From an uncultured Nitrososphaerota archaeon (GTDB taxonomy: Archaea > Thermoproteota > Nitrososphaeria > Nitrososphaerales > CADDZS01): DNA of 64,000 nt. The stretch lies in contig CAWCYI010000004.1 of NCBI GenBank assembly GCA_963799845.1, forward strand, positions 928,001 through 992,000, read 5' to 3'. Below the pieces are notes generated by a model. It saw only the letters and a list, made by a program, of their open reading frames with translations, was not told where the DNA came from and did no database searches. The first letter of the stretch is position 1; each line of letters starts with the position of its first letter. Positions 1 to 18,227 of this stretch are shown piece by piece. A program made the position numbers and the translations under genes.

Positions 1-2
1 AT

Positions 3-464
3 TTCTTTGATAAAGTCTACAAAATCAACCTGAAGGGACTGGTTTTCCTATCCAAAGCCGCGGGAGCGAAAATGGTCGAAAGAGGTAAAGGAGGTAAAAT
101 CATAAACATTTCTTCCATCGACGCGTTCCACCCCACATCTGTGGGCCTCGGAGCTTATGACACTTCCAAGGGAGGAGTGACGATGTTCACCAAAGCCCTC
201 GCTCTGGAGCTTGCACCCCACGGGATTATGGTGAATTCAATTGCCCCCGGAGGTATAGCGACGGAAGGCACTTCGAAACCTCTCACAGGAATGACCGAAG
301 AACAAACGAATCAGATGATGAAAGCGTTTCTTGCGAGGATTCCTTTGAGCCGAATGGGAGTTCCAGATGACATTGGGAAGGTGGCCCTTTTCCTGGCTTC
401 TTCTGCGTCCGATTACATAACAGGCCAGACGCTTATTGTTGATGGCGGCATGCTCCTCAGCTAG
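3..464 (+). CDS. SDR family oxidoreductase (5' end outside the window)
   Basis: IINISS, catalytic YxxxK (YDTSK), VNSIAPG and C-terminal ITGQTLIVDGG; frame is open to the window start. Confidence 0.95.
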   Translation, partial: FFDKVYKINLKGLVFLSKAAGAKMVERGKGGKIINISSIDAFHPTSVGLGAYDTSKGGVTMFTKALALELAPHGIMVNSIAPGGIATEGTSKPLTGMTEEQTNQMMKAFLARIPLSRMGVPDDIGKVALFLASSASDYITGQTLIVDGGMLLS

Positions 465-494
465 TTGCGAGAGAAGTACAGCTCACCTCATGGA

Positions 495-563
495 TTTACA
501 AGTAAATTGGGGTTCAAATCCCACATTCCGCTCATGAGAATATCACAAGGTGAAATCTAGTAG
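495..563 (+). repeat. Repeat family 1, copy A (palindrome plus tRNA-3'-like core; right palindrome degenerate)
   Basis: TTTACAAGTAAA-TTGGGGTTCAAATCCCACATTCCGC...CTAGTAG; aligns with 2431, 5580 and 6583. Confidence 0.85.
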
Positions 564-730
564 TTTCCTACGAATACAAGCCACCCATTCTGGCAAATTC
601 TCGTATTTACTATCAACAGCCTACAGTGGTACCTGCTCTTGGGTTCGAGTCCAGATAGACGCGCTTACATGTCGAACAACCGCCCATCTTGGATAGCGTG
701 CAACTGCGACAGGAGGTTTCTGTCCGGAGT

Positions 731-1933
731 CTACTTTTTGACTTGGACACCTTGTCGCCACACAGCTCGGATGGACAGCGTGTCTGAGATGTTCGTCGTT
801 GGGTCCCCATCGACCAGCAGCAGGTCGGCGCGAGCCTGAGGAATGACCCGCCCCCTGTCGGTGAGACCGAACCTGCGCGCAGGGATGGATGTGGCTGCCT
901 GTAGTGCTTCGATCGGGCTCAATCCAGCCGCGACTAGGAGTTGCAGTTCCTGGTGCAAGCTGGCACCGTGGCCGAGTCCACCTAAACTGGGGATAGGCTC
1001 CGAAGCATCACAACCTGCCAGAATGTCTACACCCGCCTCGTGGAGGGCTATGACCCCAGCATACGCATCTTCGAGCTTTCCTTGGGGGTATACATTCATG
1101 CTGCGGGAGAGCGCGTCGAGCCACTTCTGGTTCAGCTTGGAACTTACTCGTTTGTCGGCGGCGAGCGCAGATGCATTATTGCCAACGGCAGAGGAGATCG
1201 TCACAAGAGTGGGGATAACAAACGCGCCGGAGGATGCAATGGAATCCACAAATTCGGCAGTAGGTCGACTATCAAAGAACAAGTGTGCCAGACCATCTAC
1301 TCCAGCTGCAATAGCTCTTTGGCCCCCTTCGGCGGTCGTTACGTGCGCGATGGCCAGCCTACCATTACGATGAGCTTCCTTTACGGCTGCACCGAGGATT
1401 TCATCATCAAGCACAGGAAGCCCCGGGAAACCGATACAGGTTCCGTCCTCAATGAAGATTTTGATGTAGTCGGCTCCGTCAGCGATCTGCTTGTCTACGA
1501 ATTTGACTGCTTCGTCAGGGGTCGAGACACAAGGATAACGATAGAATAGGCGAATGAGTAAGTTGTTGCTCGAACTCATGTATTCAGTCGGGTGACCTCC
1601 TGGAGGAGTGAGGCCCATCCCAGAGGATCGCAAATCCGCGACATCACTCCGTTCAGCGATTTCCTTACGCTTCTTCGTTGTCCAATGACCGTTCATCTCC
1701 AACTCTGTGGTGACACCAAACAACAAGGCGTCACGCAATCCGTGCATGTCGGTATGCACATGGGAGTCAATCAAGCCGGGCATCAGGGTTGCGCTGTGAC
1801 CATCGATGACAGTTGCCCCAGATGGTACCTCCCCACCCACCGACTGTATATTTCCCCCGTTTATCACTACAGTCGCGTCGTCGATGATACGAACACCGTC
1901 GAAGATCCTCGCGTTGATAATGGCTGTAATCAT
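731..1933 (-). CDS. Amidohydrolase family protein
   Basis: TLMPGLIDSHVH metal motif, IKIF, AIAHV, GLAH and ADLLLVDGDP. Confidence 0.93.
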   Translation of the reverse strand: MITAIINARIFDGVRIIDDATVVINGGNIQSVGGEVPSGATVIDGHSATLMPGLIDSHVHTDMHGLRDALLFGVTTELEMNGHWTTKKRKEIAERSDVADLRSSGMGLTPPGGHPTEYMSSSNNLLIRLFYRYPCVSTPDEAVKFVDKQIADGADYIKIFIEDGTCIGFPGLPVLDDEILGAAVKEAHRNGRLAIAHVTTAEGGQRAIAAGVDGLAHLFFDSRPTAEFVDSIASSGAFVIPTLVTISSAVGNNASALAADKRVSSKLNQKWLDALSRSMNVYPQGKLEDAYAGVIALHEAGVDILAGCDASEPIPSLGGLGHGASLHQELQLLVAAGLSPIEALQAATSIPARRFGLTDRGRVIPQARADLLLVDGDPTTNISDTLSIRAVWRQGVQVKK

Positions 1934-2430
1934 GCTAGCAATAGATCTATTTCTATTCTACATAGGTAAGGCTATCTTCAATGGGAAGAGATTCTGACAA
2001 AGTGGAAGTAAACTGAGACACAAATTCCTAAAGTGAGAGACTAGGGATGGAGGTGAAAGAAAGTGTCGAAAAAGTTTGAAATCGGAGAAGGGAAAAGCGC
2101 TTCTCCACTGTCAACTGCGATATGATTACAAATCGTATCAAGATCGAGCAAGACTGAGGGATTGTTGCAAACGAATTGCACTATTCGCCACGCGCAAAAA
2201 ATTCCAGTTCGATATCGGAAGTTAACCACATCGCGTCGACGCCGTTACTGGCAAGGTAATCTACAGTAGTCCAGGACCTATCGCCATGAGTCTGCTCGGT
2301 TTCAGACTTGATGACATCGTATTCGAATCAATCTGTGCCAGGTGGAATTAATGGATCTACAACTTCAATTCTCGGAAAATTAAACCCACAAGAATAGGTC
2401 GTTGGATTCTAATATTATTCTTTATACTAT

Positions 2431-2504
2431 TTTACTAGTAAATTGCGGTTCAAATCCCACATCTCGCGCATGGAATTATTTTGTGCTCAGAATTTACTAG
2501 TAAA
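2431..2504 (+). repeat. Repeat family 1, copy B
   Basis: TTTACTAGTAAATT-GCGGTTCAAATCCCACATCTCGC...AATTTACTAGTAAA; perfect 14-bp terminal inverted repeat. Confidence 0.9.
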
Positions 2505-2638
2505 GAATAAACCAATTTTCATGTTCATGGTTGGCCCGAGTTTGTCTATTGTCAATTCTACCGTTGTCAATTTGCTTGTCTTGATTTTAGGACAAAGATT
2601 CATAATAAGCGAGCCACACCCTTGCGCAAGGCCTGAGC

Positions 2639-3100
2639 ATGAAACCTGCAGAGAAGTCCCCGAAGTCCGCCAAAAGCACTACCGCGACCAGCAAGAAGTC
2701 CAAAGGATTCACGGACGAGGAACGAGCCGCGATGAAGGAGCACATCCAAGAGCAGAAAGCGGGCAAGGCGGACGGGGAAAGCGCTGTGCTTGCGAAGATC
2801 GCCACGATGTCTGAACCGGATCGCGCCATGGCCAAGCGTCTCCATGAAATCATTATGAAGAGCGCGCCAGCCCTCTCGCCGAGGACCTGGTACGGGATGC
2901 CTGCCTATGCTAGGGACGGCAACGTCGTCTGCTTCTTCCAGCCAGCGCAGAAGTTCAAGACAAGGTACGCGACATTAGGTTTCAGCGACGAGGCGAATCT
3001 CGATGAGGGCGATATGTGGTCGACCGCCTTCGCTCTGATGGGATTGAATGCCGCCGAAGAGGCAAGGATCGGCGCGCTGATAAAAAAAGCGGTGACCTGA
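2639..3100 (+). CDS. DUF1801 / YdhG-like protein
   Basis: [11 protein letters not shown] and [10 protein letters not shown] are typical of DUF1801. Confidence 0.88.
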
Positions 3101-3102
3101 AT

Positions 3103-3528
3103 ATGAAAGCAAGTGCAACTTCTTCCCCGAACGGTAAGTCTACCTCTCAACAGATAGATGCAATAATTAAGAAGTCGGATGACTGGCGAGGCAAGAGATT
3201 ATCACAACTTCGCATTTTGATCAGGAAAGCCGACACTGACATAATCGAAGAAGTGAAGTGGAGAAAACCCAGCAACCCGATGGGAGTCCCGGTCTGGTCT
3301 CATGACGGAATAGTCTGCATAGGAGATACGCTCAAGAACGCCGTGAGACTGACATTCCCAAAAGGCGCTCAGATTAAGGATACAAAGAAGCTCTTCAACA
3401 TGCGCCTAGACAGCAATACAGTTCGTGCAATTGACTTCCACGAAGGTGACGCTGTAGACGAAGCTGGGTTAAGAGCACTCATTCTCGAAGCTGTGAAGCA
3501 GAACACATCGAAAGTGCGCGAGCGATAA
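3103..3528 (+). CDS. DUF1801 / YdhG-like protein
   Basis: DWRGKRL, EEVKWRKP, GVPVWSHDG and LTFPKGA; ATG at 3103 just after the upstream stop. Confidence 0.88.
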   Translation: MKASATSSPNGKSTSQQIDAIIKKSDDWRGKRLSQLRILIRKADTDIIEEVKWRKPSNPMGVPVWSHDGIVCIGDTLKNAVRLTFPKGAQIKDTKKLFNMRLDSNTVRAIDFHEGDAVDEAGLRALILEAVKQNTSKVRER

Positions 3529-3592
3529 ATAGCTCTGCGCGTGACTGGGCCAGCGAATCGTCCATTATCGCCAATTCAATTCCTGGGAACAA

Positions 3593-5570
3593 TCAGTAGA
3601 CTCCAATCTTTTTCATTATTTCTGCAAATTTCTCGTTAGTTTGTTTGAGCCTGTCAAAAACAGGGAAATGTCCGAAGAGGATCATGCTCAGCTTCCCTAT
3701 CTCTATACGCTTTTTCAAAGAATTCGACGGCTCTTTCATCTTCTTGGAGACCCAAGTATACCAGGCCAATATCAAATGCACCCGACCTCCCGATTCTATC
3801 TCCCTTTGTAATTTCGTCGATAATTTCTGCCGCTTCCTTTTTTCTCTGAGAGACAGCTAAGACGTATCCGAGATAACTCAAACAGTATGAGAGTCGATCG
3901 GTGAGCTCAACTGCCTTGTTGGTCTCCCTTAGTGCGTCATCAAACTTTCCCTTCTCTACGAAAATTAGTCCCTTGAAAAGTCTCGGATAGATTCCTCGGG
4001 GATCCAGATCGAGCGACTCGTTGAATAAATTTAGGGCATTATAGTACCTTCTAGTATTGTAGAGCGTCTTCCCAATGTGCCATTTCAGGAACGCCCAGAG
4101 CGGGTCCAGCTCAAGCGCCCGACTGTTTTCCCGCTCTGCCTCCGCAGCTCTGTTGGACAATCCAAAAGTGTCCCCCAGCCATAAATGCGGAGTAGAATAG
4201 CTTGAATTAAGTTCAATGGCCCGCTTGAATTCTCTTTCAGCTGTAGGAATATCATAATCTGATTGTAGGGAAACTATTCCCAGTGAGCAGTGCGCCTCTG
4301 CGAGCTCCGGGTCTGCATCAATGGCGAGTTTTGCATAGTGTTTTGCTTTCGCGAAACCTTCCTTTTCGGTTATTTCCTCCCCCGCCATGTACGTGTAACA
4401 TTCGGAAATTCCGGATAAGGCCAGACCGTAATTAGGTTCCAATACGAGAGCCTTCTCGAAGCATTCAATAGCTCTGAAGAAACGCTCTCCCATCTCCATA
4501 GTCCGCATGAAGTATCTTCCCTTGAGGAACAAATTGTACGCCTCCGCATTCCTGGATGATTCTTTCTCGATTCTTGCTCTGGCACTCGGAAAAAATGTCG
4601 ATTGTAAAGTCGAACTAACTGTTTCTGCGATCTCTGTTTGAATTGCAAAAACCTTCTCCAATTTCCTATCGAACTTTTTTGACCATACGTGCCTGTCCTC
4701 AGCTGTATCGATGAGCTGCACGGTAATGCGCAGATCGTCTCCTGCCTTCCGGACACTTCCTTCGAGGATCAATCCGGCGTCGAGTTCTTTCGAAATCTCT
4801 TTTACCTGGACGACTGCATTATTCTTGTAACGCATTATAGAAGTGCGGGAAATTACGTCGAGACCTTGAACTTCGGACAGAGTCGTGATGAGTTCTTCCG
4901 TCAATCCATCTGCAAGGTATTCATCTCGTGGATCTGGGCTTATGTTTGAAAAAGGCAGTACTGCAATTCGGCGATCATTCGAATTTTCGCGAGTCTTTTC
5001 CCTTACGACGCCTGCTTCCCAAGGCATTTCGACCGAGTACAATTCCGTGGGAAATTCAACGTTCTTCAGTGACTGCTTTCCGAGCAGTCTCAGAGGCTGG
5101 TCTATTTTGTTGTGCACCTGGTCGAACACCTGCCGGGAAATTGCGACTCTTTCGGGAGGTGATAGCTGCTGAATTCTTGATGCAATGTTCACTGCATCGC
5201 CGAAAACGTCATTGTCTTGATGTATGACATCGCCCAGATGAATGCCAATCCGAAGTGTGGTCTTCCACTCCTCTCTTGAGGAGAAGTTGTAGTCGTGAAG
5301 AAATTCTTGGATCTTAATCGCGCACTTGACGGCATTCAGGGCGCTATCAAATTCCACGAGAAAGGAGTCTCCAATTGTTTTCACCTCACGTCCTCGATTT
5401 TTCGGAAAAAATGGACGGAGAAGATGAAAGTGCCTTTGAAGAACCGCCATCGCCAGTGACTCATTGGCTTGAGTAAGAGCAGTATAGCCGACCATGTCCG
5501 TGAACATTATCGCCGCGAGGCGGCGCTCATCCAACGACAAAAAGTTCAGACTACTCCGGTTAGTGGACAT
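3593..5570 (-). CDS. Class III adenylate cyclase + TolB-like + TPR protein (frameshift near 3690)
   Basis: RRLAAIMFTDMVGYT, KTIGD, DVFGDAVNIASR, IAVLPFSNIS, EGSVRK and TPR repeats; C-terminus (..EKFAEIMKKIGVY) is in another frame. Confidence 0.9.
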
Positions 5571-5579
5571 TTGTATTAT

Positions 5580-5636
5580 TTTACTAGCAAATTCGTGCTC
5601 AAATCCCATATCTCACATTCGGGATTTACTAGTAAA
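5580..5636 (+). repeat. Repeat family 1, copy C (short, 57 bp)
   Basis: TTTACTAGCAAATTCGTGCTCAAATCCCATATCTCAC..GGGATTTACTAGTAAA. Confidence 0.85.
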
Positions 5637-5684
5637 ACTAGATCTTATCTTAAAGTACTTTGCAAGAGCTCTCCCTAGCATAGT

Positions 5685-6362
5685 CTAGCGGAGTGAGAAG
5701 CCTTGCAGACCGGAATTTTTTCTGGTAACTATCTTTGATCTTCGTCTTCTTCTAGTCCACCAGCTAATTGGAATTGGACAATTATCGGCTAAGGCTATGC
5801 TCCCCTGTCTGAGCTTTTGGTCGACAATCGCAAAGTCTGATTTTGCCTCTTCGATTTCGTATGGAACGTCGTACAGAAAGAGGTCGACGCTTTCAACTTC
5901 CTTTATCAAATCTGGAAGAATTTCACTACTCTTTCCTAGTCTCAGATCCCAGTTTTTCTTCAACGATTGAGGAACCGCCCAACCGGATTTTTTTCCCGGG
6001 GGCAAAACCCAAGATACTTTTGGTCGAGGAATGTTTTCAATTTCTTTCTCGGGGAGATCTATTGAATGGAGCACGCCTTTTCCATTTGATTCCAAGGCGT
6101 GCAAGAAATATGCTGACGAAACACCGGCCGAAACACCGACCTCGACGACATGTTTCGGTCTCGTGATTGTCACAAGTGTGCGCAGCTCAAACGGCGCACA
6201 AATCTGAATGTAACTAGAGCGCCCACCCTCTGCCAAGTTGCGCTCCATCAAATGGCGAAAAACGATGTCTTGACTTATCAATTCGTTTTGCATCTTTGAC
6301 ATCCCAAGGCTGACTCTAGCTGAGCTTTGACACGAAGAGTGCATCGGGAGCGCCCCGTTCAA
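5685..6362 (-). CDS. Class I SAM-dependent methyltransferase (Methyltransf_24-like); start uncertain
   Basis: VVEVGVSAGVSS, LHSIDLP and VDLFLYD. Confidence 0.85.
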   Translation of the reverse strand: MNGALPMHSSCQSSARVSLGMSKMQNELISQDIVFRHLMERNLAEGGRSSYIQICAPFELRTLVTITRPKHVVEVGVSAGVSSAYFLHALESNGKGVLHSIDLPEKEIENIPRPKVSWVLPPGKKSGWAVPQSLKKNWDLRLGKSSEILPDLIKEVESVDLFLYDVPYEIEEAKSDFAIVDQKLRQGSIALADNCPIPISWWTRRRRRSKIVTRKNSGLQGFSLR

Positions 6363-6582
6363 TTTTTGGTCTGGTTTCTTTTTAACGAGTCTGACGTGCT
6401 AGGATGCGATGATTGCACCGTCTTTCATAATAAGAATTTGAAGTCTCCTATTTGAAAATTCAATTGTTGTACGAAGGGTAGTTTTTCCCTTCTAAAGAGC
6501 ATCAGAAGTCTTAATCTCTGAGTTTCTCGACCTTCGATTTTAATTCGGAAAGATTCAAAGGTTTCGAATTCAACGATCATTT

Positions 6583-6655
6583 TTTACTAGTAAATTGTGG
6601 TTCAAATCCCACATCCCGCTGTTGGATTATCCTTCCTTGGGATTTTACTAGTAAT
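6583..6655 (+). repeat. Repeat family 1, copy D
   Basis: TTTACTAGTAAATTGTGGTTCAAATCCCACATCCCGC...TGGGATTTTACTAGTAAT. Confidence 0.9.
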
Positions 6656-6882
6656 TACGTGTCCGAATCCCGTTTCTGATTCGAATTCGGAATGTTCTCC
6701 AACGGGACTCGCACCTGTATTCGGATAAAATTCTTGCAGGCAGAAGACCGTGAGCTCCCGATTACGGAGCTAGATTGAGAGGATACAGCTACTGTCCTTA
6801 AAAAGACCCCAATGGGGTCGTAAGCCAGTGAATTATCATAACCACAAAACAATCTATCATAAAGAAAAAATCGATAGGTTAC

Positions 6883-7863
6883 ATGGTCGTCCCGGATCTA
6901 AGGGACACTCATACGCTGCTGAATCACGCAGCACTTGCTGCGAAGGCTGGATTCTCTGTGATTTGGGTTCCAGACCACTTTCATCCCTGGTTTCACACAG
7001 GAGCCTTCGAAGCTAATTCCTGGATTTGGCTTTCGACCGCCATGGATAGAATCAAAACGGTCCCGTTCGCTTCGGGGGTGACCGTCCCAATTCTAAGATA
7101 TCATCCCGGAATCGTGGCACAGGCGTTTGCAACTCTCGAAGTAATGCACGGCCCAAGAATCATTCTCGGAGTGGGGAGCGGTGAGGCACTGAACGAGATA
7201 CCACTGGGATTTGAATATCCTCCACTACCTGAAAGAATCGACAGAATGGTCGAAGCGATTACGGTCATGCGAAAGTTGGGCACAGAAGAGTTCGTGGATT
7301 TCAAAGGAAAGTACTACACGCTGAAAAAAGCAAATCTGTACATGAAGTCCACAGTACCGATATACATCTCCGCGCTCGGCCCGAAGACAGCGAAGATCGC
7401 AGGAAAAATTGGCGACGGTTTCATTACCTTCCCATCGCCGATGGACCGACTGAAGAATGTGATCTTTCCAAAAATCAGAGAGGGCGCGCAATCGGTGGGC
7501 AGGTCTTTTGACGATATCACAAAAGTATTAGAGCTGGACGTGTCTCTCGATCTAGATTATCAGAAAGCACTGGATGCCCTGAGGCCTCAGAAGCCAACTC
7601 TCGTCCCGAACATCTTCAACACTAACGAGTACGATCCGAGGAAATTAGAAGAGCGTGGAAATGCCGAAGTAAGTGACGAGGATCTCGCAAAAGCGTTCAT
7701 TGTCGGATCTTCGGTCGATGATCATATCACGAGAATTGAAGAGGCGTTTGATGCAGGCTTCGACCACGTATTTGTGTCCAGCAACAGTCCGGACGAAGAG
7801 AGATTCATCGACGAATACAAGAAAAAAGTGATACCATACTTCGAAAAAAGATCTGAGGAGTAA
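6883..7863 (+). CDS. LLM class F420-dependent oxidoreductase (G6PDH-like)
   Basis: DHFHPW, RYHPGIVAQAFATL and LGVGSGEALNE. Confidence 0.93.
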   Translation: MVVPDLRDTHTLLNHAALAAKAGFSVIWVPDHFHPWFHTGAFEANSWIWLSTAMDRIKTVPFASGVTVPILRYHPGIVAQAFATLEVMHGPRIILGVGSGEALNEIPLGFEYPPLPERIDRMVEAITVMRKLGTEEFVDFKGKYYTLKKANLYMKSTVPIYISALGPKTAKIAGKIGDGFITFPSPMDRLKNVIFPKIREGAQSVGRSFDDITKVLELDVSLDLDYQKALDALRPQKPTLVPNIFNTNEYDPRKLEERGNAEVSDEDLAKAFIVGSSVDDHITRIEEAFDAGFDHVFVSSNSPDEERFIDEYKKKVIPYFEKRSEE

Positions 7864-8102
7864 AAACGTCGCCGCCGTTCATCATTTCGCGGAGGGAAAT
7901 CGCAGGGTAGCGAAAGAAAATAATTCTGGGTGAGAACAAGAAACCTGCAACGATAAAAGTGAGACTTATCGGCCAGGAGACGAACTTAATATTCTCTGGT
8001 AGCGCCTTACGCTAGAACGCGATGCAGCAGGTACCTCACAGGTCTTTCTTTCCCGCCTTGCAATTTCGTTATCGAAGAAGAAGATACATAACTTCCCCTT
8101 TT

Positions 8103-16498: not shown

Positions 16499-17083
16499 AA
16501 TCTAAACGTAGGCCACGTGATTCTTATCAGAGGTATTTTTCCAAATATCTCCTTTCAGCTTAACTTTGCCGGATTGTTCAAAAATAACGAGGTTCTATTT
16601 TCTTGATACTGTTTGAAATTTCAGATAGACAGAGGACCCAATTCAAGACATATGAGACTAGGATCTGCTGTTTGTATTTTGGATTGGCTAAGTTCCGAAA
16701 TGAATGTTGACATTGGAACGAGTGTTCCAAAACTCAATCGATCGGTTTGTAGTCTGTGTGAATTGTTTTCTTATCTGATTGCCGATAATAGGTTGACTAG
16801 CATTCATGATATGTAGAACTATCGTCTTTCCAAGACTGGGCAATGTTTCTGGATGGTCTCAGGAAACAATATTAGTTACCGTTGGATTTTCTGACGGACC
16901 CTGGTGATACGAAAGCCGATCGTTCATTTGTCCCGTGAAAATTGAAGAAAAAATTCGTTATGCCCATCTTAATTGACCGCTTTCTTATTATCACTCCCAC
17001 AGATGCTCTGACGCGGGAAAGTCGTGAAGCATCGAGACTGAACGAAGATAATTGGTTTGATGAGTACTTTCTCGGAATTGAAT

Positions 17084-18211
17084 TAACCTGGCCGACATAA
17101 GTTCATAGACACCTGTTGGTCAGAAGGAATTTCTTCATGTCAAGATGCGAGCAAAACCTTCGCGTTCGATAGTATTCTGCCAGGATTGATTTCAGTTCTT
17201 TCAATGACGTCGGAAAGGTTGGAAGCCTTGAGAGATCCTTCTCACCCTCGCGCCAACACTCCTCCATCATGTTGAACTCTGGCGAAGCTGTCGGGATCCA
17301 TCTGACTCTGAGAGTCTTCCTGTTCTTACCCAAATAATCAGTTACGATCCTGGTTTTGTGGTGTTGCCTTGCTTTGTCAAGGAAGAGATAGAGTGATCCA
17401 AACTTCCTGTGCACCTTCTTCAGGTAGTCGAGGAATGTCTCGCCATTGAATTTCTCGTACTGCCTGAAGATTTGTGTCCCGTCCAGGCTGATCGCTCCAA
17501 ACACCACGGTGTTGCCGTGCGAGCCTGACACAATCCGAATCGGTCGAATCCCTTTGACCGCCCACACCCTTTTGGTTTCTATGTTCTGGACGAAGATTGA
17601 TTCGTCTTCGGATGCTACGGTGAAGCCTTCCGGGATATTCCTGAGGAGTCTTGCGGTCCTTTTTTAAATTCGAGCCTCTCTTCGAGGGAAGCCTTGTGAA
17701 GTAACCTCTTGTCAGGGACAATTGCTCTCACTCCCCACTTCTGCATCAACCTGTAGATGTGTCTCTCAGTGTATGCCACGTCTGCTTCCTTGCGGATCAT
17801 CTCCCTGACCTCCTTCACGGTCCAGCCGCATTCGTTCTTCACGACCTTCCTCTTCACCGCAATGAACTTGTTGTGATCGAGCTTCGGAGGTCTCCCGCTC
17901 CTTTCCATCGTCTTGAGTCCTTCTAGCCCATCTTTCTCGAAACGTCTAAGCCACGGTGTCGTCCATGATTTGTGCCGGTGAACTTCCCTTGCTACGTGCG
18001 ACGCCGGGACACCCTCGTACTTGACCTTCAGAACGAGGAATATCCTCTTGCTTACGTTTGCGTCCCTCTCCTCTCTATAAGCCTCTTCAACAATCTCCTT
18101 CGGTGCCTGTAATCGAGACATACAACCTGAGATAGGAAGGGAAGTTGGCCAAAAATGAGAATGTCTAGGTCTGTGGCCCTTTCAGTCTAATAATTTATGT
18201 CGGCCAGGTTA
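17084..18211 (-). mobile_element. IS630-family insertion sequence, apparently complete
   Basis: Perfect 17-bp inverted ends TAACCTGGCCGACATAA / TTATGTCGGCCAGGTTA, including the TA target duplication; two-ORF transposase. Confidence 0.95.
17103..18121 (-). CDS. IS630 transposase (HTH ORF + DDE ORF joined by a -1 frameshift)
   Basis: RSGRPPKL HTH; DES, LFLDKARQH and SPEFNMMEECW DDE motifs; slippery TTTAAAAAAG at about 17659-17668. Confidence 0.92.
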
Positions 18212-18227
18212 GATTGAGGAATTTGTA

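Follow-up and report, generated by a model that had tools for sequence, protein, structure and literature searches.

Palindrome-flanked copies of tRNA 3' ends as putative boundaries of integrase-less gene units in an uncultured archaeon

Near the left end of the DNA analysed here, a 64,000-nucleotide stretch referred to as the window, unrelated genes are separated by short intergenic repeats built from the 12-bp palindrome TTTACTAGTAAA, ~26-33 nt that appear to be copied from the 3' end of a tRNA, and the palindrome again. The window corresponds to C4:928001-992000 of G000, a metagenome-assembled genome (MAG) of an uncultured Nitrososphaerota archaeon, which comprises 4.6 Mb in 9 contigs (GC 47%, completeness 87%, contamination 4.9%) and is assigned to the Thermoproteota by its RpoB. 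The copied piece would be part of the T-arm and the 3' acceptor strand of tRNA-Leu, or of tRNA-Gly in one variant. Judged from sequence, the repeats are taken here, with a little more confidence than doubt, to be attachment (att)-type recombination sites bounding integrase-less cassettes stacked in tandem. This reading builds on what is seen directly in the genomes, namely the architecture of the repeats, their junctions with tRNA genes in relatives, the geometry of their arrays and mosaic breakpoints at the sites.

The first-pass annotation of the window described four co-oriented copies starting at 495, 2431, 5580 and 6583, all of which were found at these positions, on the forward strand. 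With at most one mismatch, the palindrome matches seven times in the window, always within repeat copies, compared with an expectation of 0.05, and none of 100 shuffles reached seven. The core GGTTCAAATCCCAC is exact in copies A, B and D and has three mismatches in copy C. Copy A (495-531, nhmmer E 1.7e-9) consists of a left palindrome with one mismatch (TTTACAAGTAAA, 495-506) and the tRNA-Leu-like core TTGGGGTTCAAATCCCACATTCCGC, and lacks a right palindrome, making it a 'palindrome-core' type with attR-like geometry. Copy B (2431-2504, E 2e-11, DNA fold z -3.25) is a 74-nt long form, with palindromes at 2431-2442 and 2493-2504 enclosing the core and a 17-nt extra segment. Copy C (5580-5636, E 2.5e-10, z -3.8) is a 57-nt short form (palindrome TTTACTAGCAAA, core TTCGTGCTCAAATCCCATATCTCACATTCGGGA, palindrome), the left edge of which lies 10 nt from the start codon of a minus-strand cyclase-TPR gene, and copy D (6583-6655, E 1.7e-9, z -4.4) is a 73-nt long form with a left palindrome, the core TTGTGGTTCAAATCCCACATCCCGC and the right palindrome TTTACTAGTAAT. 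The inner inverted repeat AAATCCC/GGGATTT reported earlier for copies C and D is present in both. A fifth unit, absent from the earlier description, extends from 6644 to ~6682 on the same strand (E 8e-4), sharing the right palindrome of copy D and continuing into a tRNA-Gly-like core (TACGTGTCCGAATCCCGTTTCTGA, variant 3 below). A further copy, consisting of a core and a right palindrome, lies just outside the window at C4:927465.

Scanning of the genome and its relatives, as had been proposed, places the window copies in a larger family, which is clustered and intergenic in G000 and extends to the relatives. In G000, nhmmer matches at E<0.05, excluding the duplicate contig C8, amount to 71 copies at 60 sites (composite units merged), and the exact palindrome occurs 40 times, or 79 times with up to one mismatch. 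Called with up to two mismatches, the palindrome is present on both sides in 20 copies, on the left only in 34, on the right only in 9, and on neither side in 8. Just 5 of the 71 copies fall inside open reading frames (ORFs) of at least 100 aa, even though such ORFs make up 77% of the genome. Of the sites, 80% have another one within 10 kb, versus 22% under random placement (maximum 42% in 1000 trials), and neighbours at this distance have the same orientation in 32 pairs and opposed orientations in 4. The clusters are distributed over C4 (5), C6 (at least 6), C7, C1, C3 and C5. The copies are diverged (~70-95% identity), and the similarity between them stops sharply at the outer palindrome edges, spanning 57 nt, 74 nt, or ~135-160 nt in composites. 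Recurrent protein families beside the repeats in G000 are limited to the cyclase family (13 of 128 flanking ORFs), IS110 fragments and an ABC ATPase. A 6-kb segment that includes a repeat copy is common to C7:8985-14985 and C8:1636-7632 at 99.87% identity, indicating that the assembly, with its contamination estimate of 4.9%, contains some redundant or strain-variant sequence.

Three core variants, grading into one another, were distinguished. Variant 1 (TTGGGGTTCAAATCCCACATCTCGCA) resembles the T-arm and acceptor strand of tRNA-Leu, variant 2 reads TTCGTGCGGGGGTCCCACATCTCGCA, and variant 3 (TTCGTGTCCGAATCCCGTACCTCGCA) ends in 18 nt that equal the 3' end of tRNA-Gly. Composite units consist of variant 3, 77 nt and variant 2, or of variant 2 followed directly by variant 3. 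The 3' ends of the G000 tRNA-Leu genes read ...GTGGGTTCAAATCCCACCCCCCGCA or ...GTTCGTGGGTTCAAATCCCACCCCCCGCA, and that of tRNA-Gly(CCC) at C7:113855-113947 reads ...GGGTTCGAATCCCGTACCTCGCA; variant-3 copies elsewhere in G000 carry CGAATCCCGTACCTCGCA, the 3' end of this same tRNA. The tRNA-3'-end origin claimed in the first-pass annotation is thus upheld by the tRNA-Leu ends in G000, and by tRNA-Leu and tRNA-Gly junctions in relatives.

The relatives are fragmented MAGs of 58-96% completeness (58-87% for the six of the same genus). The 14-mer formed by the palindrome and TT is present in 12 of 41 genomes of the order, G000 included; among these are 7 of the 12 other genomes of the same family. 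Its reversed control gave one match in each of two genomes. In G022, which belongs to another family of the order, a tRNA-Leu(CAG) is followed by CTAA, the palindrome, and an ORF running to the contig end, which is read here as possibly encoding a ribbon-helix-helix/coiled-coil protein of the kind found in mobile elements (the Pfam matches were confined to weak coiled-coil ones). Near the end of another contig of the same genome lies the palindrome followed by TTAATGCTG and AAATCCCATCCCCCGCA, which together equal the last 17 nt of G022's own tRNA-Leu, including its private CCCAT variant. Taken as attL and attR, these junctions rebuild an attP of the form palindrome-core-palindrome, the architecture of window copies B, C and D, in agreement with the recombination-site architecture proposed earlier. 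In the same-genus genome G003, tRNA-Gly is followed by AACCTA, TTTTCTAGTAAA and a variant-3 core, and tRNA-Leu by CTCACGA and TTTTCTAATAAA, which matches the right half of the repeat. In G010, a PALP enzyme gene and tRNA-Leu are followed by a degenerate palindrome, a single gene whose 349-aa product belongs to no integrase family, and the palindrome with TTCGTGTTCAAATCCCGCCACCCCCGC, a copy of the tRNA-Leu 3' end. In the metagenome contig L056, which shows the same PALP-tRNA-Leu context, the tRNA is followed by a single RibD_C gene enclosed by two full repeats, the second with a near-perfect tRNA-Leu 3' end as its core. Thus, the orthologous tRNA-Leu locus holds different single genes in G010 and L056, each framed by members of the repeat family. 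Inserted DNA with a complete tRNA on one side and a direct repeat of that tRNA's 3' part on the other was found in G010, in L056 and, on two contig ends, in G022. What follows downstream of tRNA-Leu is different in each of the relatives compared, and three MAG contigs break off a few hundred bases or less from the tRNA.

Pfam assignments in the window, G010 and L056 bear out the claim that the repeats bound small integrase-less units. The genes between sites encode an amidohydrolase, DUF1801 proteins, a cyclase-TPR protein, a methyltransferase, RibD_C and SDR proteins, an ABC transporter and the 349-aa protein, and no integrase is encoded among them. RibD_C-type genes with family members on both sides occur in four contexts (L056, G002:C28, C4:1374220 and C6:1746707 in G000), the left-hand copy being weak (E 0.08) in the last.

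Comparison between genomes places breaks in homology at the repeat edges, as had been anticipated from the window. In the cluster at C4:1372-1377k, a unit consisting of a repeat and a 102-aa gene is 93% identical in G003, where its flanks are unrelated; the shared sequence opens precisely with the left palindrome and runs up to the first T's of the next one. The best homologues of the neighbouring genes in this cluster are on different contigs of G006, two of them long. Within G000, mosaic blocks end or begin at the sites: a 99%-identical block ends inside a variant-3 core, an 873-nt block of 100% identity ends at a half-palindrome, a 92% block starts at the left edge of a composite, and an 88% block ends at the border between core and right palindrome. 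One locus is syntenic in G003, G004 and G002 and contains ~300 extra nt in G000, in which palindrome and core abut the stop codon of the conserved gene with the core pointing outward, the geometry of attR. Presence or absence of units with breakpoints at repeats was thus seen between genomes, in a few cases and on short contigs. Among solitary sites compared with the relatives, that at C4:241019 had no homologues there, and at C4:1749193 a 95%-identical block ends 258 nt from the unit.

The right end of the window array provides a further breakpoint. A block at 6716-7982 on the forward strand, containing the gene for an LLM (luciferase-like) oxidoreductase (6883-7863), is 96% identical to G003 and 86% to G004, another genome of the genus, and in this region it alone is common to same-genus genomes at high identity. 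The similarity to G003 sets in at position 6716, ~30 nt beyond the right edge of the last repeat unit, and for the genes to the left of this position the six MAGs of the genus gave only paralogue-level matches. The upstream neighbour of the LLM gene in G003, ~430 nt away, is the tRNA-Gly with palindrome and variant-3 core; in G000, it adjoins copy D and a variant-3 core, with the 6-kb array beyond, and tRNA-Gly is on another contig with a different 3' flank. The right end of the array therefore coincides with a rearrangement breakpoint tied to a tRNA-Gly-type site. The motif GGGACTCGCACC at 6703-6715, just left of the breakpoint, and at C6:903660, left of an IS110-like insertion, is the reverse complement of the start of a variant-2-like core, and may be a degenerate inverted unit.

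In the proposed mechanism, the repeat would be the attP of elements integrating at the 3' ends of tRNA-Leu and tRNA-Gly in this archaeal order or, equivalently, the junction between two units integrated in tandem. Integration would leave the tRNA followed by a palindrome (attL-like), and a palindrome with a tRNA-3' copy (attR-like) at the far end of the insert. In G000, dozens of such sites would delimit units of 1-3 genes without an integrase, stacked in co-oriented arrays that may later have been scattered by rearrangement, insertion sequence (IS) activity and recombination between sites. Cutting and joining would depend on a site-specific recombinase provided in trans, for which the likeliest candidate is a tyrosine integrase encoded by a virus, by a plasmid or on unbinned DNA of the genome, with the palindromes as putative binding arms for the recombinase or an accessory protein, and the tRNA-like core as the presumed crossover region. 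A more ambitious proposal, held tentatively and with the odds against it, is that of an IntI-independent archaeal gene-cassette system, active in soil and sediment Thermoproteota, in which the tRNA-Leu/-Gly 3' end would be the primary docking site, palindrome-core-palindrome would act as the attC on circular single-gene cassettes, and a candidate recombinase acting in trans would capture and shuffle accessory genes, many of bacterial type.

Several observations weigh against recombination sites of stacked cassettes. In the search for a recombinase, suggested earlier for tyrosine recombinases nearby, PF00589 gave four matches in the whole of G000 (C4:2115564, C7:200823, C2:35074 and C3:6015), none of them in or beside any cluster, and neither an SSV-type integrase nor a serine recombinase was found in this 87% complete genome; two repeat-bearing relatives, both incomplete MAGs, contained no PF00589 match. 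In accretion arrays all repeats are expected downstream of a single target gene, and here they form at least 12 scattered clusters. ARAGORN found no tRNA anywhere in the 64-kb window, and thus at neither end of its array, which lacks the pairing of tRNA and 3' copy seen in the relatives. The earlier suggestion of a source tRNA left of the window fails, since even with intron search ARAGORN places none on C4 between 489,581 and 1,366,359. Genes lie in both orientations relative to the sites (flank orientation classes 24/14/13/9), and RibD_C genes are antisense to the sites in three contexts and sense in one, a poor fit to a cassette that would always move together with its own directional site. 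The positions of breakpoints vary (left palindrome edge, inside the core, core/right-palindrome border), and homologous recombination between repeats could lie behind some of them. Most synteny tests rest on short contigs, owing to the fragmentation of the relatives, and no protein family recurs in more than 4 of the 80 metagenome loci described below. Finally, soil metagenome DNA runs of one study match window DNA, and the assembled contigs of its 4 runs contained no excised circle or empty array junction. These contigs break at the repeats, and their joints and inserted letters match other genomic copies (e.g. C4:1374964 and C4:1749193), so that they are evidence neither for nor against excision. 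Of tandem accretion as first proposed, the tRNA origin and the boundary role are largely upheld; a single tRNA-proximal array is not.

The junctions described above also allow a transposition-based explanation, in which the palindromes are the terminal inverted repeats (TIRs) of cut-and-paste or casposon-like elements inserted at tRNA 3' ends, the core is the duplicated target, and the unit is a tandem-insertion junction. The order of tRNA end and palindrome on one side, and palindrome and tRNA-end copy on the other, fits TIRs with target duplication as well as attL/attR, and tandem casposons at one target are described in the available text of PMC6563490. G000 contains complete Cas1 genes at C4:202687 (397 aa) and C4:236442, and, ~0.9 kb to the right of a repeat, a Cas1 fragment (C6:1748317-1748640, Pfam positions 178-281, its frame opening with a TGA stop). 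No palindrome was found near the 397-aa Cas1 gene, and no family member within ~4 kb of the other complete gene, and a casposon link was set aside on these grounds, with no PolB search made. Casposon target duplications measure 14-15 bp; the copied tRNA segment, at 17-28 nt and diverged, is longer. The unit shared by G000 and G003 begins with palindrome and core and stops before the next palindrome, which are not the limits of a TIR-bounded transposon. Transposition of this kind is thus considered very unlikely.

The single-stranded folding of the units is relevant to another explanation, that they are selfish intergenic repeats resembling repetitive extragenic palindromic (REP) sequences, bacterial interspersed mosaic elements (BIMEs) or miniature inverted-repeat transposable elements (MITEs). 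An att-derived hairpin unit of 57-74 nt would spread through a candidate transposase and pile up in gene-poor accessory regions, where the units would be passive hotspots for homologous recombination and IS insertion, giving rise to the mosaic breakpoints. As DNA single strands, copies B, C and D fold better than shuffles on both strands (z -3.3 to -4.9), a hairpin potential that such repeats share (copy A does not, z 0.27), and discrete edges, palindromic ends, tandem and composite arrangements, and the lack of an integrase linked to the sites in G000 are likewise to be expected. Gene 3' ends face 75 of the 120 flanking sides, and 24 of the 60 sites lie between convergent genes, a preference also typical of this class.

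An insertion sequence that appears specifically to target the palindrome fits the same explanation: a degenerate ~1.2-kb IS110-family element lies inside the 12-bp palindrome at three places (C6:961379-962589, C6:903701-904902 and C4:1954607-1957756), with junctions of the form TTTACT-AG-[GTGACATG...CATGGG]-AG-TAAA, in which the 2-nt AG core is duplicated. IS110/IS1111 elements likewise insert in REP and attC sites. A full-length 1.55-kb IS110 relative, present in four copies (DEDD_Tnp_IS110 and Transposase_20), has on its flanks GTCCGAATCCC-like sequence similar to the variant-3 core. Against a mobile hairpin, the copies are diverged rather than near-identical, target-site duplication was not seen, and the one clearly syntenic filled/empty case, among few comparable sites, is the ~300-nt insertion with a unit at one end rather than the unit alone. 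IS200/IS605 was rejected as mobiliser, as the ends of its two G000 copies, which carry the only Y1 transposases there, are unrelated to the repeats. A mobile hairpin also leaves unexplained the genuine tRNA followed by a palindrome, and the matching tRNA-3' copy beyond a single gene. The MITE alternative raised in the first-pass annotation is accordingly weakened, and is regarded as doubtful, if far from negligible.

A role in regulation was considered in two forms: a dimeric transcription factor would bind the palindrome as its operator, giving two operators at a distance of 45-62 bp, or the whole unit would be a bidirectional terminator or insulator. Exact conservation of a perfect 12-bp palindrome 40 times in one genome is in keeping with an operator, and T-runs beside the palindrome on both strands, together with the frequent position of units after gene 3' ends, with a terminator. 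Outside G000, genome contigs contain two exact palindromes 30-60 nt apart at 8 loci, all bacterial and with unrelated inner sequence. These include L001-L003 (Chloroflexota, Ktedonobacter) and L006-L007 (Prevotella), where the spacing of ~45 nt has the look of a protein-binding motif, and the paired palindrome may be the operator of some regulator in these bacteria. Among viral contigs, a double palindrome was found at 4 unrelated loci and the palindrome-core pattern at none. An operator in G000, as the first-pass annotation had allowed, is disfavoured, since the distance to start codons is not fixed (21-1473 nt); nor is gene orientation, and yet neighbouring units are strongly co-oriented. 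The genes on either side have no function in common, regulation gives no role to the tRNA-3' core or to its match with the local tRNA of relatives, and homology breakpoints at unit edges are not expected, making a regulatory function improbable.

The repeat family extends beyond the genome to related genera and to at least 120 metagenome contigs matching the palindrome followed by TTSGKG, N5-9 and ATCCC. For 80 loci that were retrieved, nhmmer gave 96 copies (one copy in 65 loci, two in 14, three in 1). Across these contigs one and the same palindrome stands before 3' ends that belong to several different tRNAs, many of them including CCA, a pattern that fits a constant palindrome arm combined with a core specific for each putative target. 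A subgroup of 14 loci (L059, L060, L064, L065, L077, L078, L085, L089, L096, L098, L105, L111, L112 and L129) has a second tRNA 3' fragment on the other strand, ~15 nt before the palindrome, with a perfect T-arm and CCA (...GAGAGTTCGAATCTCTCCCGGGCTACCA) and an ATATA-rich stretch between it and the palindrome, so that two outward-facing tRNA ends share one palindrome. A literature search gave no description of the repeat, full-text matches to the 12-mer being unrelated; the supplementary att-site tables of PMC6563490, covering thaumarchaeal elements, lay outside that search.

Such metagenome copies raise the question of a small RNA, in which the units would be the 3' halves of split tRNA genes, or a processing signal resembling tRNA, and the palindrome a leader pairing with a partner transcript. 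A TATA-like, AT-rich stretch is found ~10 nt upstream of the palindrome in a subgroup of 15 metagenome copies, in which the core ends in an acceptor strand and CCA, followed by T-runs. The G000 tRNAs also invite this idea: ARAGORN found 9 without and 35 with intron search, indicating that nearly all are intron-bearing, and some introns are at non-canonical positions or number more than one per gene (Rfam tRNA matches of 66-141 nt). A hairpin ATCTCG/CGGGAT in some copies alternates with ATTCC/GGAAT in others. The folding of the family as RNA speaks against it, as the RNAalifold consensus (21 short and 8 long copies) is weak, at -1 to -4.6 kcal/mol, with variants 1 and 2 adopting different folds. 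A permissive Rfam scan of window positions 1-8000 found nothing on the repeat units, neither tRNA nor any other family, and at gathering threshold 20 metagenome loci yielded ordinary tRNAs only. Most copies have a T-stem 5' strand that is not complementary, implying that the copied piece starts inside the T-loop, like an att core. With ~70 copies whose cores match no G000 tRNA, and no partner 5' halves seen, an RNA function is given very little credence.

The genes between the window copies are unrelated to one another, as reported in the first-pass annotation, Pfam assigning them to SDR, amidohydrolase, DUF1801 (twice) with cyclase-TPR, methyltransferase and LLM oxidoreductase families in the successive intervals. 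Between the C4:927465 copy and copy A, a forward-strand SDR gene (3-464) is truncated at its 5' end by the window start. The interval between A and B (532-2430) contains a minus-strand amidohydrolase gene (731-1933) and ~500 nt with a 62-aa ORF of no Pfam family. That between B and C (2505-5579) holds two forward-strand DUF1801 genes (2639-3100 and 3103-3528) and the minus-strand adenylate/guanylate cyclase-TPR gene (3654-5570), and that between C and D (5637-6582) a minus-strand Methyltransf_24 methyltransferase gene (5685-6302). A DUF1801 homologue in G007 (90% over 315 nt) was discarded as a comparison, being a partial gene match with no repeats nearby. Paralogues of the cyclase-TPR gene are numerous, with dozens of DNA matches of 64-78% in G000 and relatives, and one member of this large family follows a tRNA-Leu and a degenerate palindrome at C8:15718-16930. 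Further right in the window, ~17073-18217 (C4:945073-946217) is one of ~20 near-identical (99.9-100%) copies of a 1.13-kb IS with terminal repeats TAACCTGGCCGACATAA and two ORFs (HTH and DDE_3, IS630-like). Its insertion sites are varied, and one copy ends 28 nt from the repeat at C6:967998.

If the sites are active, a soil archaeal lineage could gain single accessory genes (DUF1801, RibD_C, SDR, amidohydrolase, cyclases) and reorder them, none needing an integrase of its own. In function this would amount to an integron built from tRNA-targeting integration machinery, and it would help to account for the many paralogues of the genome and for its unusually large size (4.6 Mb at 87% completeness). 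The palindrome with its tRNA-3' mimic, found on the metagenome contigs counted above, is a simple tag for variable regions and integration hotspots in archaeal MAGs, and the conserved palindrome is a handle for finding its binding protein or recombinase.

Comparison with known systems begins with short repeats. Like REP, BIME and MITE sequences, the units are short, abundant, hairpin-forming and intergenic, often follow gene 3' ends, and are targets of IS110-family elements. They differ in the tRNA-derived core, the genuine tRNA junctions, the co-orientation of neighbours, the divergence of copies, and the absence of a linked RAYT or other transposase. Split tRNA 3' halves differ in turn, by the T-stem complementarity that most copies lack, and the Rfam scans above gave no tRNA match on the units. 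IS1111-attC elements target integron attC sites, and targeting of the site by an IS110-family element is among the traits shared with integrons, including archaeal integrons (Ghaly et al. 2022, in the part available). Other shared traits are small, mostly single-gene units without their own recombinase, accessory cargo of bacterial type, and separating sites that are hairpin-capable, conserved at their ends, variable in the middle, and co-oriented in arrays. By contrast with integrons, there is no IntI (the four PF00589 matches in G000 lie away from the clusters), attI or Pc platform. Instead of matching RYYYAAC/GTTRRRY, the attC motifs as quoted in the first-pass annotation, which had rightly noted the mismatch, the site ends read (T)TTTACTAGTAAA on both sides (TTTAC without AAC, GTAAA without GTT), and the core is a tRNA 3' mimic. 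Genes occur in both orientations while the sites are co-oriented (32 versus 4), and arrays are multiple and scattered. Integron membership thus fails on integrase, site motifs and gene orientation, and the likeness is functional.

Archaeal integrative elements that target tRNA genes through tyrosine recombinases share with the units a preference for the tRNA 3' part, tRNA reconstitution, direct repeats at both ends, and tandem integration, as far as described in the accessible parts of PMC8371274 and PMC6563490. According to the same parts, the known elements are kilobases long and encode their own integrase, unlike the repeat units here, and these texts make no mention of a 12-bp palindrome shared by both arms or of dozens of integrase-less single-gene units. 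In the Dehalococcoides ssrA islands, as covered by the available text of PMC3146451, direct repeats of a tRNA-like gene's 3' end mark the borders of tandem islands, with insertion in the T-loop and a conserved motif immediately upstream of each repeat. Some units there lack an integration module, and are discussed as cis-mobilizable elements (CIME) joined by accretion. The units of G000 are similar in being co-oriented and bounded by copies of a tRNA 3' end, each after a constant motif, here the palindrome. In Dehalococcoides, all repeats lie within 100 kb downstream of one ssrA and 16 of 31 islands carry a serine-recombinase module (PMC3146451, same text), whereas here at least 12 scattered clusters consist of 0.6-8-kb units with 1-3 genes, the core has a palindrome on either side, G000 yielded no integration module, and the host is archaeal. 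The closest known systems are thus the integrase-less tandem accretions at tRNA-like genes (CIME and ssrA islands) and, functionally, integrons.

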